DNA from: Woeseiaceae bacterium
GTDB taxonomy: Bacteria; Pseudomonadota; Gammaproteobacteria; Steroidobacterales; Woeseiaceae
Reading direction: 5' to 3'
NCBI GenBank assembly: GCA_041587435.1
Contig: JBFGYM010000001.1
Location: 1 to 56,933, forward strand
Length of the DNA stretch: 56,933 nt
Below the pieces are notes generated by a model. That model did no database searches, was not told the origin of the DNA, and was given only the letters and a program-made list of their open reading frames with translations. Each line of letters starts with the position of its first letter. The first letter of the stretch is position 1. The translations under genes were made by a program, and so were the position numbers. This document shows positions 20,989-56,567 of the stretch, in pieces.

Positions 20989-21666
20989 CTAGTACGGATG
21001 CAGCACGGAATTGAAGAAGCGCGAGATCAGCCCCATCTTGTTCGCTGCGGCTAGAACGCCCTTGCTGCTGTAGGTGATCTGCGCGCTCGCGATGCGGTTC
21101 GACTGCAACGAATTGTCGGGCTCGATATCATCGGGCCGGATGATGCCGGTCAGGCGAATGAACTCCTGACCCTGGTTGAGCGTGACCCATTTGTCGCCGG
21201 CAATAACGAGGTTGCCGTTCGGCAGGCGTTCGATGACGGTCACCGTGATGTCGCCGTCGAGGCTGTTGCTCTGGCTGCTGGAGCCGCGGCCGTCGAAGTT
21301 GCTGTCGCCGCTGAGCTCGCCCTCGAACAGGGAAACGCCGTTGTGGGTGATCCCCCGGCCGAACACGGTCGGATTCAGGAGCGTCGCCTCGGTCGACTTG
21401 CCGGTCGATGTCTGCGAGTTCTTGGACGCGTTGGTCTTCTCGGCCAGCACGACCGTCAGGATGTCGCCGACGCGGCTTGCCTTGCGATCCTCGAACAGGC
21501 GGATCTCCGTCCCTTCGTTGTAGATCGCGCCGGGCTCGGGCGGTTTGCGCGCGGCAGTGTCAACGGTCGGCGGATACCAGCGAGGCTCGGGACCGCGCTG
21601 GCTGGCGCAACCGACGAGAGACGCCAGTCCGAGGAGCGACACGATGAAGAAAATGGGTTTGCTCAT
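20989..21666 (-). CDS. flgH: Flagellar L-ring lipoprotein FlgH
   Basis: Lipobox LASLVGC. Conserved FlgH core ([15 protein letters not shown]...[16 protein letters not shown]). Confidence 0.94.
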
Positions 21667-51229: not shown

Positions 51230-52018
51230 CTAAACTACCGGCGCCTCCAAATCCCTGGCGGCCCGCGGAGCGGCCATCAGGGACGTGCATTGCACGAGTC
51301 CGGTCATGATGGGCACGAGCTCGTCCGCGAGGACGGGCTGCAGCCCGCGCAGGCGTTCGAGCTGCCGCGCCGCGTCCGCCGGCACCTCCTCGAACTCCAT
51401 GATCAGGTCCTCGACCATGCCCAGCTTGATGCCGGGGTTGGCCGAAAAACCAAAGGCGTTCTCGCCGACCTGCCATACGGCGGGCCGATCCCGCTCGTCG
51501 CGGGCCAGGATCACAGCATCCGGCGGCGGCACGGGCCAGTCGCGCATGTAGACGACCTGGTGAAAAGACGCCGGCAGGTAGCCGTTCAGCGCGTCGTCGC
51601 GCGTGCGCGTCACGGCGAGGTGTTCGAGGGTCAGCGCCCGCGCCTCGACGCCTCCGCCCGCGGCCAGTGCCAGGATCTGCGCGCCGAGGCCGAAGCCCAC
51701 GACCGGTGTGCCCTCGTCGAGGCGCTGCCTCGTAATGTCGATTTCCTGCCCGAGCGTCGGCAGGTCACGTCCGCCGGCCGCGCCCCAGGGCCCCCCGCCG
51801 AGCAGGATCAGCGCGTCCGCCGGCAGGTCGGGCGCCGGCAGCCTGCCGGCTGCGAACGGGCGGTAATACTGGAAACGGATGCGGCGACCTTCGAGGTGGT
51901 CCTCGATCAGGCCGAGGTACTCGCCGGCCGTGTGCTGGATCACGGCGACGACGTTCATGGGGTTCGCTTCGCTGGCAGCGAGCATGAAGGCATCGTCGGG
52001 GTTCTTGCACTGCGCCAT
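51230..52018 (-). CDS. Class I glutamine amidotransferase-like protein lacking the catalytic triad
   Basis: GATase1 fold pattern (ALILLGGGPWG...PVVGFGLGAQILA). The nucleophile Cys position reads Gly (GFGLGAQ vs G-x-C-x-G-x-Q). The HPE-type motif reads ANPG. Confidence 0.7.
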   Translation of the reverse strand: MAQCKNPDDAFMLAASEANPMNVVAVIQHTAGEYLGLIEDHLEGRRIRFQYYRPFAAGRLPAPDLPADALILLGGGPWGAAGGRDLPTLGQEIDITRQRLDEGTPVVGFGLGAQILALAAGGGVEARALTLEHLAVTRTRDDALNGYLPASFHQVVYMRDWPVPPPDAVILARDERDRPAVWQVGENAFGFSANPGIKLGMVEDLIMEFEEVPADAARQLERLRGLQPVLADELVPIMTGLVQCTSLMAAPRAARDLEAPVV

Positions 52019-53100: not shown

Positions 53101-54282
53101 TTACTCGACCGTAACCGGGATATCGAGCTGCTTGCGGATTTTCCTGAGGTCTTTCTTCTGCGGCTGGAACGGGTAACTCGCGATGTCGCTCGGCGGCGAG
53201 TCGCCGTACGGCCGGTCGCAGGCCGAGATGTCGTCCTGGAACTTGCCAGGGCAGCCCGAGGTGCGGAACGCGATGCCGGCGTCGATGACGTCGTTCAGCT
53301 CGGCATCGCCGATGCCGTAGCTCTTGACCCTGCCCTGGTCGTCGAACGTCATCTGTCCGACACGGACGCCGCGGTAGTCGATCAGGTAGCGCGCGAGCTG
53401 CACGCGGCGCCACTGGTCGCGCGGCGTCGCGGGCAGGTGATCCATGAGCGAACCGTCCTCCGGGAAGAAGCAGAACATGTGGCTGTGACCGCCGAGGTCC
53501 ACGAGCTCCTGGACCAGGTTCAGGACCTCGTACTCCGTTTCGCCCATGCCGACGATGATGTGTGCGCCGAATTTGCCGGCGCCGAAAATGTCCCTCGCCT
53601 CTAGCAGGATATCCCAGTATTTCTGCCACTTGTGCGGCGACTGCACGCCCTTGCCGCGCGTCCGGTCGAAGATCTCGGGCGTTGCGGCGTCCAGTGCCAC
53701 GGTGAAGATATCCGCGCCGAGGTCCTTGCATTGCTGGACGTCGTCGCGGGTCATCGTCGTGGGGTTCGACAGGATCGACACGGGAATTGCGCCGGGGTCG
53801 ATGCGGTCCGTCCATTGCTTGAGAACCGTGAACGTATCGTCCTCGGAGCGCGGGTGCGTAATCATCGAAATGCACATGCGGTGGAACGGGCTGGCGTCGG
53901 GATCCCTGGCGACGATGTCGACGATGTCGGCCATCGGCACGGCCGGCCAGTCGACGCGGATGAAGTTGCGATCGGCGTAATCGCGCTCGGCTTCGCGATG
54001 GCGCGCAAGGCCGCAGTAGGCGCAGTTCGCGCGGCATCCTTCCGGGTACGTCAGCAACAGGTTCAGGCAGCGCGTGCAGTCGCAACCGTACATGCGGCCC
54101 CCCATGATCCCGAGCGTGATGGCGGCCGCGTTCGACAGCTGCACGTATTCCGGCGACTTCATGTGCGGCGCGAGGAAATTGTTGTTCGGCAGGTAAACGC
54201 CTTCGGGCGGAATGTCGTTCGCCTTGACGGGCTTGCCGTTGCGCCGTTCGACGGGCGTCTTGCCGGGCAAGCGGGGCTCCAT
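53101..54282 (-). CDS. LipS-type radical SAM protein (archaeal-type lipoyl synthase component, LipS1/LipS2 family)
   Basis: CRANCAYCG (CX3CX2C) radical SAM cluster motif. BioB/LipS-like. Adjacent to the ligase. The start is uncertain: ATG 54282 has no Shine-Dalgarno, and the frame is also open to ATG 54408 (GAGGA Shine-Dalgarno) and TTG 54423. Confidence 0.8.
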   Translation of the reverse strand: MEPRLPGKTPVERRNGKPVKANDIPPEGVYLPNNNFLAPHMKSPEYVQLSNAAAITLGIMGGRMYGCDCTRCLNLLLTYPEGCRANCAYCGLARHREAERDYADRNFIRVDWPAVPMADIVDIVARDPDASPFHRMCISMITHPRSEDDTFTVLKQWTDRIDPGAIPVSILSNPTTMTRDDVQQCKDLGADIFTVALDAATPEIFDRTRGKGVQSPHKWQKYWDILLEARDIFGAGKFGAHIIVGMGETEYEVLNLVQELVDLGGHSHMFCFFPEDGSLMDHLPATPRDQWRRVQLARYLIDYRGVRVGQMTFDDQGRVKSYGIGDAELNDVIDAGIAFRTSGCPGKFQDDISACDRPYGDSPPSDIASYPFQPQKKDLRKIRKQLDIPVTVE

Positions 54283-54285
54283 ATT

Positions 54286-54384
54286 GGTGACAGTTTCGGT
54301 GACAGTCACCTTAACTCCGGCCGAGCTGTCGCCCCTGCCACGTTGGTCAGGGGAGTTAAGGTGACTGTCACCGAAACTGTCACC
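54286..54384. repeat. Perfect 33-bp inverted repeat with 33-nt spacer (99-nt palindromic element)
   Basis: 54286-54318 GGTGACAGTTTCGGTGACAGTCACCTTAACTCC is the exact reverse complement of 54352-54384. Each arm contains the 6-1-6 palindrome GGTGAC-N-GTCACC. Confidence 0.9.
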
Positions 54385-54419
54385 ATTCTTGTGCTGTCTG
54401 CAACCCATATTGTCTGTCC

Positions 54420-55457
54420 TCAAGCGGCGAACGACGCCTGCAGTCGTGATTTGATGTCGCTGCCCACCTTGATCGAGCAGCAGGAATGCGCCTGTTCGAA
54501 CGGGCGCCCGATCGTGTGCGCGACCGACACGGCCCCGTCGGCCGGGAACGCGATGCCGTCAAGCCCGGCCATGATGGCGTAGGCGTCCGTGACGCGCTTG
54601 TGCATGCCGGGCGGCCGCGCACAGCCGAGCAGCACCTGCTGGTCGGCGAGCCGCTCGCGCGCCTCGAGGAAGATGCGGCCGACGTCCGAGGTTCCGGGCG
54701 TGACGAACGTGCCCGGTTTCGCGTAGAACGGCATGATCACGACGAGCACGAGCGCGTTGACGTCGTAGCGGCTGATCATGTCCAGCGCATTGGCCTCGCC
54801 GAGGATCTGCCCGTAGTGCAGCCCGACGACTATGTGCGGCGTGACCTCCATCGACGTGGAACACAGTGCTGCCAGCGTCTTCTCGAAGTCCTCCACGGGA
54901 CGCCGGAGCTTGTATACCTGCTCGATCGTCTCCTGCGCGCCGATGACGTCCATCATCACCGTGTCGACGCCGGCCGATTCCATCTGCTTCGCGCGGCGCT
55001 CGTCGAGCAGCGCCGTGTGCACGGCGATCTTGAGGCCCGGGAAGTCGCGCTTGAGCCCCTCGATGACCGGCATGTAACGGCCGTACGGAATCTCGTTCTT
55101 GCGGTTCGAGCCGCCCGACAGGAGAAAGCCGCTCAGGGCCTGCGTCTTCACCAGGTGGCGGACTTTTTCGTCCAGCATGGCCGGGCTCGTCGCCGGAATC
55201 ATCGGCTCGAGGATCTTCTTCTGGCAATGATCGCAGTTCAGTCCGCACTCGCCGGCCGTGATGGAAAACGCCGGGAAGCTGTTCTTGCCGCAGCCCTCGA
55301 GCTCCGACGTCTCGTACTCCTTGAAAGTCGGGGTCGAAAATCGGATCGGCCGCGATACGACACGGTCGGCGCGGCGTTCGAACTGCGCGACGAGATCCGC
55401 GTCGAAAGCGGCGTCCTCGAGGTCCTCGATCGTGAGCAGCGCATTCAGCCAGGTCAT
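54420..55457 (-). CDS. LipS-type radical SAM protein (second lipoyl synthase component)
   Basis: CGLNCDHCQ (CX3CX2C). 345 aa. 12 nt downstream of the HDAC-like gene. Confidence 0.8.
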   Translation of the reverse strand: MTWLNALLTIEDLEDAAFDADLVAQFERRADRVVSRPIRFSTPTFKEYETSELEGCGKNSFPAFSITAGECGLNCDHCQKKILEPMIPATSPAMLDEKVRHLVKTQALSGFLLSGGSNRKNEIPYGRYMPVIEGLKRDFPGLKIAVHTALLDERRAKQMESAGVDTVMMDVIGAQETIEQVYKLRRPVEDFEKTLAALCSTSMEVTPHIVVGLHYGQILGEANALDMISRYDVNALVLVVIMPFYAKPGTFVTPGTSDVGRIFLEARERLADQQVLLGCARPPGMHKRVTDAYAIMAGLDGIAFPADGAVSVAHTIGRPFEQAHSCCSIKVGSDIKSRLQASFAA

Positions 55458-55469
55458 ACCGTCGTTTCC

Positions 55470-56567
55470 TCAAAAAGCGTCAACGAGCAATCGTATCTCG
55501 TCGCGGATGGGCCCGGGGTGCGGAGTGTCCGCCAGCGTCGTCAACCATTCCTCGCGCATGTGGTCCTCGTCAACGAGATCGCACTTCATGTTGCACAGGT
55601 ACTCCGTCGCTTCCGGCGGCAGGCGCTCCGGGAACGGCCGCCCGCTGATGCGGCCCCACATGCCGGCCCAGTAACGGGTCACGGTCCATGGATTATAGCC
55701 GCCGCCGCCGAGGATGACGGTCGGCAGCCCGCGCGCGATCAGCTTGTCGACGGCGTCCCAGAGCGCGACGTTGGACAGTTCCATCGTCGACAGCGGGTCT
55801 CCCGCGAGGCAGTCCGCGCCGCAACACAGCACGAGCGCATCGGCCTGCACCCAGTCCACGAGCGGCACCACGGCGCCTTCGAAGAGAAACCCGAACTCGC
55901 TGTCGTTCAGGCCGCGCGGCACCGCGAGATTGTAAACACCCGCCTCGGGCCGCGAGCTCGTGCCGCTGAAGGGCCAGCGTTTCGCCTCGTGCAGCGACAG
56001 GGTCGTCGCGCGTGGCTCGTCGACGAACGCATCCTCGACGCCGTCGCCATGATGGGCGTCGAGATCGACATAGAGAACGCTGCGCCGGCCTTCCTTCAGG
56101 AGGGTCAGGATGGCAAACACGGGATCGTTGAAATAGCAGAAGCCGCTGGCACGGTCCGACCGCCCGTGGTGCGTGCCGCCGGTCGGATGGAACACGACGT
56201 GCCCGCGGCTCGCGAGTTCGGCCGAGAGGATCGAACCGCCGACCGTCATCGACGCACGTTCGAACAGTCCCTCAAAGAGCGGATTCTCGAAGGTGCCGAC
56301 CCGGTAGCGCTCGCGCACGTCGCGCTCGACGGACCCTGTGGCGTTTGCGTATTGCAGTGCCCGCACGTACGCACGACTATGAAACTCGACCAGCTGTTCG
56401 ACGGTGGCGGGGCGGCTCTCGCGGAACGCGGCTTCGTCGAGCCAGCCGAGCATCTTCAACAGGTCGACGACGGCTGCATGGCGGACGATGTTGAGCGGGT
56501 GATTGCGAGCGAAAGCCGGCTTTCGGTAGATCTCGCTGCCCACGAAAAACGGCGCGCTGACGGTCAT
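55470..56567 (-). CDS. Histone-deacetylase-family Zn-dependent deacylase (AcuC/Aph-like)
   Basis: All catalytic motifs are present: GGTHHG (tandem His), DLDAHHGDG (Asp/His Zn ligands), GADCLAGDPL (third ligand Asp), GGGGYN (catalytic Tyr). Confidence 0.88.
   Translation of the reverse strand: MTVSAPFFVGSEIYRKPAFARNHPLNIVRHAAVVDLLKMLGWLDEAAFRESRPATVEQLVEFHSRAYVRALQYANATGSVERDVRERYRVGTFENPLFEGLFERASMTVGGSILSAELASRGHVVFHPTGGTHHGRSDRASGFCYFNDPVFAILTLLKEGRRSVLYVDLDAHHGDGVEDAFVDEPRATTLSLHEAKRWPFSGTSSRPEAGVYNLAVPRGLNDSEFGFLFEGAVVPLVDWVQADALVLCCGADCLAGDPLSTMELSNVALWDAVDKLIARGLPTVILGGGGYNPWTVTRYWAGMWGRISGRPFPERLPPEATEYLCNMKCDLVDEDHMREEWLTTLADTPHPGPIRDEIRLLVDAF

Follow-up and report, generated by a model that had tools for sequence, protein, structure and literature searches.

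A Palindromic Repeat, Probably of REP/REPIN Type, in Frame within a LipS2-Like Lipoyl-Synthase Gene of a Woeseiaceae Bacterium

A perfect 99-nt palindrome stands near the junction of two putative lipoyl-synthase genes in a Woeseiaceae bacterium (contig JBFGYM010000001.1, positions 1 to 56,933; the whole 56.9-kb stretch is called the window here), raising the question of whether it is a regulatory signal, a mobile repeat, or part of a protein. Probably, the palindrome is an in-frame repeat resembling repetitive extragenic palindromes (REPs) and their inverted doublets (REP doublets forming hairpins [REPINs]), associated with REP-associated tyrosine transposases (RAYTs), which sits in a tolerant linker of the LipS2-like protein and behaves like a Rickettsia palindromic element (RPE). 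REP/REPIN-RAYT systems and in-frame palindromic elements are both already known; the most unusual aspect of this locus is the combination of conserved arms and a fast-changing loop within a coding sequence.

Geometry, fold, and composition of the palindrome

The element occupies positions 54286 to 54384 and, in the mRNA sense, is read from the minus strand. Its arms are exact reverse complements (33/33) separated by a 33-nt spacer, as stated in the first-pass annotation of this DNA, and none of 100 shuffles of the window matches this arm pairing, even with 3 mismatches. Its features are as follows.

54286..54384, minus strand: whole palindromic element, a REPIN-like inverted doublet predicted to encode residues 9 to 41 in frame (arms 33/33, frame, RNA fold)
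54352..54384, minus strand: mRNA-proximal arm, GGTGACAGTTTC followed by GGTGACAGTCACCTTAACTCC, encoding GDSFGDSHLNS (arm complementarity, translation)
54286..54318, plus strand: mRNA-distal arm, the identical sequence when read on the plus strand (GGTGACAGTTTCGGTGACAGTCACCTTAACTCC); on the mRNA it encodes GVKVTVTETVT (arm complementarity, translation)
54352..54372, minus strand: core 21-nt repeat unit GGTGACAGTCACCTTAACTCC, common to the dispersed copies (repeat scans)
54298..54318, plus strand: inverted partner of the core 21-nt repeat unit (repeat scans)
54376..54384, minus strand: duplicated unit head GGTGACAGT, the earlier "extra half-site" (mirror copy at 54286-54294, plus strand)
54319..54351, minus strand: 33-nt spacer or loop with its own small stem, CCCCTG...CAGGGG; hypervariable (fold and strain comparison)

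The GGTGAC-N-GTCACC dyads and extra half-sites reported earlier are present: the 13-nt dyads GGTGACAGTCACC (54298-54310) and GGTGACTGTCACC (54360-54372) are the sole exact ones in the window, where one near-match occurs (position 21232, 1 mismatch; chance expectation, 0.16), and additional GGTGACAGT heads lie at 54286 and 54384. A duplicated head similar to GGTGACAGT is also found in L012, one of the database loci (L numbers) compared below.

Folding of 166 nt around the element, a check suggested with the first-pass annotation, gave -87.7 kcal/mol (z = -9.9). Of the mRNA hairpin proposed there, the fold is physically plausible, and the regulatory role attached to it is possible. Atypical codon usage was also corroborated, with a GC content at third codon positions of 0.61 versus 0.86 in neighboring genes and a codon typicality of 0.37 versus 0.56 +/- 0.05, lower than that of all 217 reference windows. 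An Rfam covariance-model search of the element returned only sub-threshold chance matches (mir-764, 26.5 bits versus a gathering score of 82, and SNORA5).

Start codon and position within the coding sequence

The element had been described as filling the sole large gap of the operon, with ATG 54282 as a possible start of the downstream gene. Homologous proteins place the start upstream of the element, and the genes at the junction are then as follows.

53101..54408, minus strand: gene for the LipS2-like radical-SAM lipoyl synthase (435 aa), carrying the element (Pfam Radical_SAM; NCBIfam LipS2, 180 bits)
54406..54408, minus strand: start codon of the LipS2-like gene, protein MGCRQHKN... (conserved M-[G/S]-C N-terminus)
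54417-54421, minus strand: GAGGA Shine-Dalgarno sequence of the LipS2-like gene, 8 nt upstream of ATG 54408
54280..54282, minus strand: internal Met43 codon (M-x-P-R), not a start (invariant in the alignment)
54420..55457, minus strand: LipS1-like radical-SAM gene directly upstream (NCBIfam LipS1, 199 bits; cutoff, 230)

Both LipS calls fall below the NCBIfam cutoffs (270 bits is the LipS2 equivalog cutoff, against 180 for the window protein). The LipS2 model aligns from residue 90 onward only, so that residues 1 to 89 form an N-terminal extension outside it, in which M1, C3, and M43 are invariant (64-sequence alignment) and the linker between them varies. About 105 of the 120 best homologues, mostly from Woeseiaceae metagenome-assembled genomes (MAGs), have the M-[G/S]-C N-terminus, typically as M-[G/S]-C-[I/V]-E-x-K. 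Judged by this conservation, the LipS2-like gene therefore starts at ATG 54408, and ATG 54282 is the internal Met43, wrongly considered a possible start. The GAGGA motif and a TTG at 54423 that overlaps the upstream stop were both found as first described. Only 11 nt separate the lipS1 stop (54420) from the lipS2 start, and the large gap was an artefact of the wrong start. By the same sequence comparison, the palindrome lies within the coding sequence and encodes residues 9 to 41 of the LipS2-like protein.

The length of the element is a multiple of 3, and translation confirmed that the frame through it is open and codes for the peptide given earlier, GDSFGDSHLNSPDQRGRGDSSAGVKVTVTETVT; if translated, the element would include the peptides NGDSFGDSHLNSPDQR and GDSSAGVK. 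The other two frames through the unit pair hold stops, and the single stop-free frame is the one used. Taken with the conserved start, this points to translation through the element.

Between the N-terminal motif and M-x-P-R, homologues have a variable stretch of ~8 to 11 aa (402- to 406-aa forms) or ~24 to 26 aa (417- to 419-aa forms), and linker lengths span 8-11 to 44 aa. AlphaFold2, run with a homologue alignment, gave a confident radical-SAM core, with a predicted local distance difference test (pLDDT) score of <50 and no secondary structure for residues 1 to 62. The element is thus predicted to sit in a flexible, lineage-specific, disordered N-terminal tail, on which the invariant Cys3 might act as an extra Fe-S ligand or sulfur-relay residue. 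An in-frame insertion tolerated at the N-terminus had been one of the original options; it agrees with a position downstream of the conserved M-G-C in a length-variable, predicted disordered linker and holds jointly with the REP-like option.

A dispersed repeat family

The repeat unit of ~21 nt can be written GG(T/G)GACAGTCACCTTAA(C/T)TCC. Species-representative genomes, metagenomes, and viral contigs were scanned for the exact 21-mer GGKGACAGTCACCTTAAYTCC, for which ~1 to 2 chance matches are expected per collection (~1 in the genomes). The scan returned 46 loci, 8 in genomes and 38 in metagenomes, and the viral-contig collection held 0 copies of the unit. The earlier suggestion of a REP/MITE-like element (MITE, miniature inverted-repeat transposable element) is upheld by this dispersal of the arm core and by its association with RAYTs, and the copy-number check found dispersed copies in unrelated intergenic regions, as named there for a generic REP element, with a single copy within the window.

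In one Woeseiaceae MAG (Site_B35), the unit occurs at six sites spread over five contigs (L007 to L012), one of them in its own LipS2 gene; the others are 3' of secF, 5' of trxC, across the stop of an MsrQ-like gene, in the gmk-rpoZ spacer, and in an M23-peptidase-like open reading frame (ORF). In another gammaproteobacterial MAG the unit also lies in the gmk-rpoZ spacer, and three copies occur on a contig binned as Acidobacteriota. Units are arranged singly, as inverted doublets (loops of 2 to ~40 nt), nested, or in direct tandem. Subfamilies differ in the outer stem, and the window extension TTTCGGTGAC is common to the "Acidobacteriota" and wetland copies. No ORF spans about 35 of the 45 distinct sites, so the family is mostly extragenic, with the window copy as an exception.

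Individual sites add detail. At gmk-rpoZ, within the gmk-rpoZ-spoT operon of two gammaproteobacterial genomes, the repeat stands at the same spot directly upstream of the rpoZ Shine-Dalgarno sequence (L005, 2542-2605; L010, 7485-7548); the two copies have the same arms and differing loops, and this is therefore a second orthologous, long-lived site. A single unit lies in frame within the M23-peptidase-like ORF of L007 (2992-3020, ..GNKVTVTLIP..) and L046 (1434-1454, ..GIKVTVTIIE..), extended to a 27/29 palindrome in L007, and represents either another in-frame case or convergence of coding sequence. In L012 (1930-1988), a duplicated unit head, GGGGACAGTGAAAAA, supplies the stop and last residues (..WGQ*) of the MsrQ-like gene and is followed by the full hairpin and then by a separate terminator-like stem. 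The three copies on the "Acidobacteriota" contig (L006, 3130-5120, the same as L017) belong to the long-stem subfamily, lie within 2 kb, and flank small genes; they reflect either genuine cross-phylum spread or a binning error.

This distribution bears on the proposal that the palindrome is a double operator, in which the two GGTGAC-N-GTCACC palindromes, 62 bp apart, would bind a dimeric ArsR/HxlR-type regulator and mark an internal promoter. Each arm does hold a 13-nt dyad, with centers about six helical turns apart, and an HxlR/HTH_20-type gene is located in the same cluster of relatives. However, the dyad is broken in most family members, which have GGGGAC, and the unit is also found at gmk-rpoZ, secF, trxC, RAYT flanks, and in other phyla. 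Furthermore, no sigma-70-like promoter was found in 53900-54800, the site is within the coding sequence, 11 or more nt downstream of a translationally coupled junction, no further dyad copy occurs in the window, including the regions upstream of the cluster, and most sHdr/LipS clusters are without the element. An operator is extremely unlikely, and the claim was not sustained. No terminator was found at the element; the one terminator-like match in the scanned region is outside it and at chance level.

Association with RAYT transposases

A motif search across the DNA collected found one Y1 transposase gene, in L038, with the unit on both flanks. Its product matches Pfam Y1_Tnp (8e-12; 45.7 bits, above the 23-bit cutoff) and scores 74.8 bits against the NCBIfam model REP_Tyr_transpos (REP-associated tyrosine transposase), whose equivalog cutoff is 80. 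The transposase family is large, with >7,800 proteins at E < 1e-20. Homologues of the L038 protein in other organisms (53 to 60% identity) have inverted units with the common head GGGGACAGT on their flanks, as listed here.

L051 and L052: RAYT-flanking unit GGGGGACAGTATACC
L053 and L054: RAYT-flanking unit TAGGGACAGTATACC
L055: RAYT-flanking unit GGGGACAGTTAACCTAACTC
L059 (labelled Woeseiaceae): RAYT-flanking unit GGGGACAGTTTACC
L061: RAYT-flanking unit GGGGACAGTTAACCTAACTCC, which matches the LipS2 unit in its 9-nt head and 7-nt tail

All copies and RAYT flanks share the head GG(G/T)GACAGT, and the flanking unit of Woeseiaceae relatives has both the head GGGGACAGT and the tail TAACTCC in common with the LipS2 unit. 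The association is a property of the family; the window's own genome is represented by 56.9 kb only.

L055 was taken from a contig of 3.7 Mb that belongs to a close relative of the window organism, with 83 to 85% nucleotide identity and synteny to the window end; its TusA and DsrE proteins are 90 to 91% identical to those of the window. RAYT genes are located at 10001-10663 in L055 and 8001-8663 in L061. In the close relative, the RAYT gene has a fatty-acid-oxidation gene on one side and a NiFe-hydrogenase cluster on the other, and it lies ~9.5 kb away from the TusA-DsrE pair that adjoins the sHdr cluster. L002 has other genes beyond TusA, and the region is therefore not syntenic among relatives.

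The units at unrelated loci and beside transposase genes also bear on a purely local origin, in which the hairpin would have arisen in situ by template switching, with no mobile or RAYT element, and likeness elsewhere would be due to convergence or conversion. Such an origin finds some encouragement at the LipS2 site, where "empty" sisters already hold head-like sequence, and in the symmetric 12-nt extension on both arms and the palindromic loops of L008 and L010, which resemble the outcome of inverted duplication; hairpins are known to be both generated and made perfect by template switching (PMC8794818, PMC8604942). It does not account for exact 21-nt identity at unrelated loci, whether within one MAG or between genomes, when so few chance matches are expected; independent local events cannot explain units flanking RAYT genes; and the unit is present elsewhere in the Site_B35 MAG, a carrier of the LipS2 element. 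A purely local origin is very unlikely; template switching probably accounts for how the element grew and became perfect, but not for where it came from.

Variants at the LipS2 site: conserved arms and variable loops

Variants at the LipS2 site are 45 to 99 nt long and in frame and stop-free in 7 of 7 cases. L004 and L011 have a 45-nt form, GDSHLNSGGVKVTV, with a perfect 21-bp stem and a 3-nt loop, and L003 has a decaying 45-nt version. L015 is intermediate and retains the ancestral DYNAFE motif, L002 and the protein entry P0243 have long arms and another loop, and the 99-nt form is found in the window and L001. An example of an ancestral-type linker ends in ...SPATHDTGQDYNPYDV. Element-bearing genes are confined to one LipS2 subclade and are interspersed with element-free genes (neighbor-joining tree, no support values).

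The 21-nt arm cores match at 17 to 21 of 21 positions between lineages that have only 47 to 66% four-fold synonymous identity, and the arm cores of L011 and L004 match at 42 of 42. In a comparison of five lineages, 5 of the 6 four-fold sites of the arms showed no variation, versus a background of 22% in the gene core (P = 0.0025). This conservation at synonymous sites indicates a constraint on DNA sequence and not on the peptide. The loops behave differently: the window and L002 are 99.7% identical over 1,179 nt of the core gene, yet their loops are unrelated. Their elements also differ by a 12-nt indel at the direct repeat CTGTCACCGA and a 3-nt insertion. P0243 is a third allele, and all alleles are in frame. 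Inversion of the loop between the window and L002 was considered and rejected, as alignment in either orientation was no better than with shuffled sequences.

Template switching during replication homogenizes and expands the arms of inverted repeats (PMC8794818, PMC8604942, PMC13100816) and could have produced both the symmetric arm growth and the interior turnover; conversion from other copies or RAYT activity are alternatives. An 8-bp repeat, CCATATTG (54279-54286 and 54405-54412), was examined as a target-site duplication copying the ATG and was rejected, because the ancestral protein already has Met1 and Met43, the closest relatives (L001 and L002) carry GAC in place of the AAT of the window, and other copies are without duplications. 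No consistent flanking duplication was found in L005 to L012.

Arm conservation could also reflect an exapted regulatory hairpin, in which the stem, beginning 25 nt after the lipS2 start codon, would set the relative expression of LipS1 and LipS2 through slower early elongation, RNase III cleavage of the 33-bp duplex, or protection of the lipS1 message from 3' exonucleases. The very stable fold, conservation of arm synonymous sites beyond the gene background, persistence at one site in several lineages, and location at the meeting point of two genes with cooperating products (PMC10332631) are consistent with such a role, and REP hairpins are reported to influence mRNA turnover (Messing et al., 2012, PMC3479197). 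Nevertheless, the conserved arm is the family sequence found at unrelated loci, and there is no covariation, so that the sequence, and not only the pairing, appears to be what is conserved. In addition, the element is missing from most LipS2 genes, including those of close sisters, stem (18 to 33 bp) and loop (3 to ~40 nt) differ across lineages, and the L003 copy is decaying. A regulatory effect of the 33-bp RNA stem is possible and would agree with the arm conservation; the exapted hairpin as the explanation of the element is unlikely.

A related proposal is that the element is an actively remodelled cassette, in which hairpin- or RAYT-driven loop turnover combined with enforced arm conservation diversifies the LipS2 linker or supplies a tunable RNA hairpin or RNase III site for LipS1:LipS2 stoichiometry in the sHdr-LbpA lipoylation pathway of sulfur oxidation. 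This seems quite improbable; if either were true, the cassette would amount to a REPIN domesticated within an ORF and regulating in cis.

Proposed history and points against it

As a REP/REPIN-like repeat, the element may be viewed as two inverted ~21-nt units forming a hairpin around a variable spacer, with RAYT transposases presumed to spread or maintain the units. In the ancestor of one Woeseiaceae LipS2 subclade, a copy would have entered the linker DNA between the M-G-C tag and the radical-SAM core. It could have survived there because the sole stop-free frame through the unit pair was the frame in use, because its length was held at a multiple of three, and because the linker accepts almost any sequence. 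In the window lineage, the element would have grown from ~45 to 99 nt by duplication of a 12-nt head on both arms and enlargement of the spacer, with loss of the ancestral D-[Y/F]-N-x-F motif. For arms so perfectly symmetric, the simplest explanation would be copying templated by the hairpin (template switching) or conversion from copies elsewhere. The sequence comparisons establish that the element belongs to the family and lies in frame, where the gene starts, that the arms are conserved while the loop turns over, and that the family is associated with RAYTs; from these we infer how the element arrived and grew and that it is mainly a tolerated passenger and not a regulator.

Several observations weigh against this history. 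No RAYT gene was found in the window or in the fetched LipS loci (motif search, tblastn), and no second copy of the unit occurs in the window, even when 4 mismatches per 21 nt are allowed. Copy number looks low, as the window has 1 copy in 57 kb and one MAG has at least 6 exact-core sites, whereas classical REPs number tens to hundreds per genome. The head GGGGACAGT is not the 5' GTAG of classical Escherichia coli and Pseudomonas REPs; GG(G/T)GACAGT is another recognition sequence, so that the family would be at most a different REP class. Each copy carries its own loop, and replication as a whole-REPIN unit is not evident. The element-free sisters L056, L057, and L058 are not clean empty sites, having the head-like GACACGGGACAC or GGTGACAACGGTCAC at the position, and one old gain followed by losses and remodelling cannot be separated from repeated gains at a favored site. 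Finally, the strong arm conservation at synonymous sites would likewise agree with selection for a functional hairpin. Definition of a clean empty site was abandoned, since the head-like sequence in these three sisters prevents exact insertion boundaries from being drawn.

Comparison with known systems

The definition of REPINs comes from Bertels and Rainey (2011, PMC3116915), and that of the RAYT groups, one of them widely distributed and low in copy number, from Bertels et al. (2017, PMC5581495). Like REP/REPIN-RAYT systems, the family has a short palindromic unit at several loci of one genome (Site_B35) and inverted doublets that form hairpins with a spacer less conserved than the units; it is mostly extragenic, flanks a single-copy-type Y1 (IS200-like) transposase gene in inverted orientation, and persists at orthologous sites across species (gmk-rpoZ, LipS2). 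Beyond the head and an apparently low copy number, it differs in that every copy has a loop of its own and that the window copy is intragenic and predicted to be translated. The taxonomic spread (Woeseiaceae, other Gammaproteobacteria, and an "Acidobacteriota" MAG) and low copy number resemble those of the "Group 1" RAYTs of PMC5581495, a resemblance only and not a group assignment.

RPEs (reviewed in PMC10969869) are palindromic repeats of ~100 to 150 bp that lie in frame in unrelated metabolic genes and are read through to give a peptide compatible with function, as appears to be the case here. They differ in taxon, sequence, and presumed mobilizing enzyme, and dozens of host genes are known for RPEs, against one, possibly two, for the present family; the resemblance to this Woeseiaceae element would thus be one of analogy, not membership. 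Intragenic elements of the MITE and ERIC (enterobacterial repetitive intergenic consensus) types (PMC10969869) are likewise small, non-autonomous, open-frame repeats that become part of a host ORF. Unlike in MITEs, there is no architecture of terminal inverted repeats plus target-site duplication, and the flanking CCATATTG repeat is due to chance. Template-switch hairpins (PMC8794818, PMC8604942, PMC13100816) share with the element its perfect symmetry, arms that expand symmetrically, and multinucleotide change restricted to an intragenic inverted repeat, but template switching alone leaves identical units at unrelated loci and the RAYT association unexplained. The CTTAAC/GTTAAG pair and the palindromy also prompted comparison with integron attC sites and CRISPR repeats, which were rejected: the conserved motifs are misplaced, cassettes and arrays are absent, and the copies lie scattered.

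A family of sediment and wetland bacteria, Woeseiaceae among them, with the head GGGGACAGT appears undescribed, as does its long-lived, putatively translated copy in a lipoyl-synthase gene; a literature search found no paper combining Woeseia with repetitive palindromes. The locus would tie a REP-like family spread over sediment and wetland bacteria to a very large RAYT clade and provide a case outside Rickettsia of a palindromic repeat retained in frame in an enzyme gene across speciation. The case is of use for studies of REPIN persistence, the upkeep of perfect palindromes, and starts misplaced by gene callers.

Gene neighborhood and gene calls

The surrounding genes form an sHdr/lipoate-assembly cluster (HdrB/C-like, DsrE, GATase-like, LplA-B ligase, two radical-SAM, and deacetylase-family genes), a pathway described in PMC10332631. 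A histone-deacetylase-family gene (55470-56567, minus strand) heads lipS1-lipS2-slpl(AB), followed by the GATase-like gene (51230-52018, minus strand), and the order deacetylase-lipS1-lipS2-slpl(AB)-GATase is kept in L001, L002, L004, L057, and L058. The clusters in PMC10332631 have a lipT-like gene between lipS1 and lipS2, whereas the window cluster is without one there.

The corrected annotation has the lipS2 start at ATG 54408, no intergenic gap, and an M-G-C tag tethered to the core by a linker of free length. Gene calls for seven database entries (P0012, P0052, P0060, P0061, P0065, P0073, and P0076) miss the M-[G/S]-C start; LipS2-family calls begin at Met43 (393 aa), and that of P0073 begins at a GTG inside the hairpin. 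On the plus strand, an antisense ORF (53632-54582, 316 aa) crosses the element and codes for the same arm peptides (GDSFGDSHLNS ... GVKVTVTETVT) because the element is palindromic; this ORF is almost certainly spurious and is a trap for gene callers.

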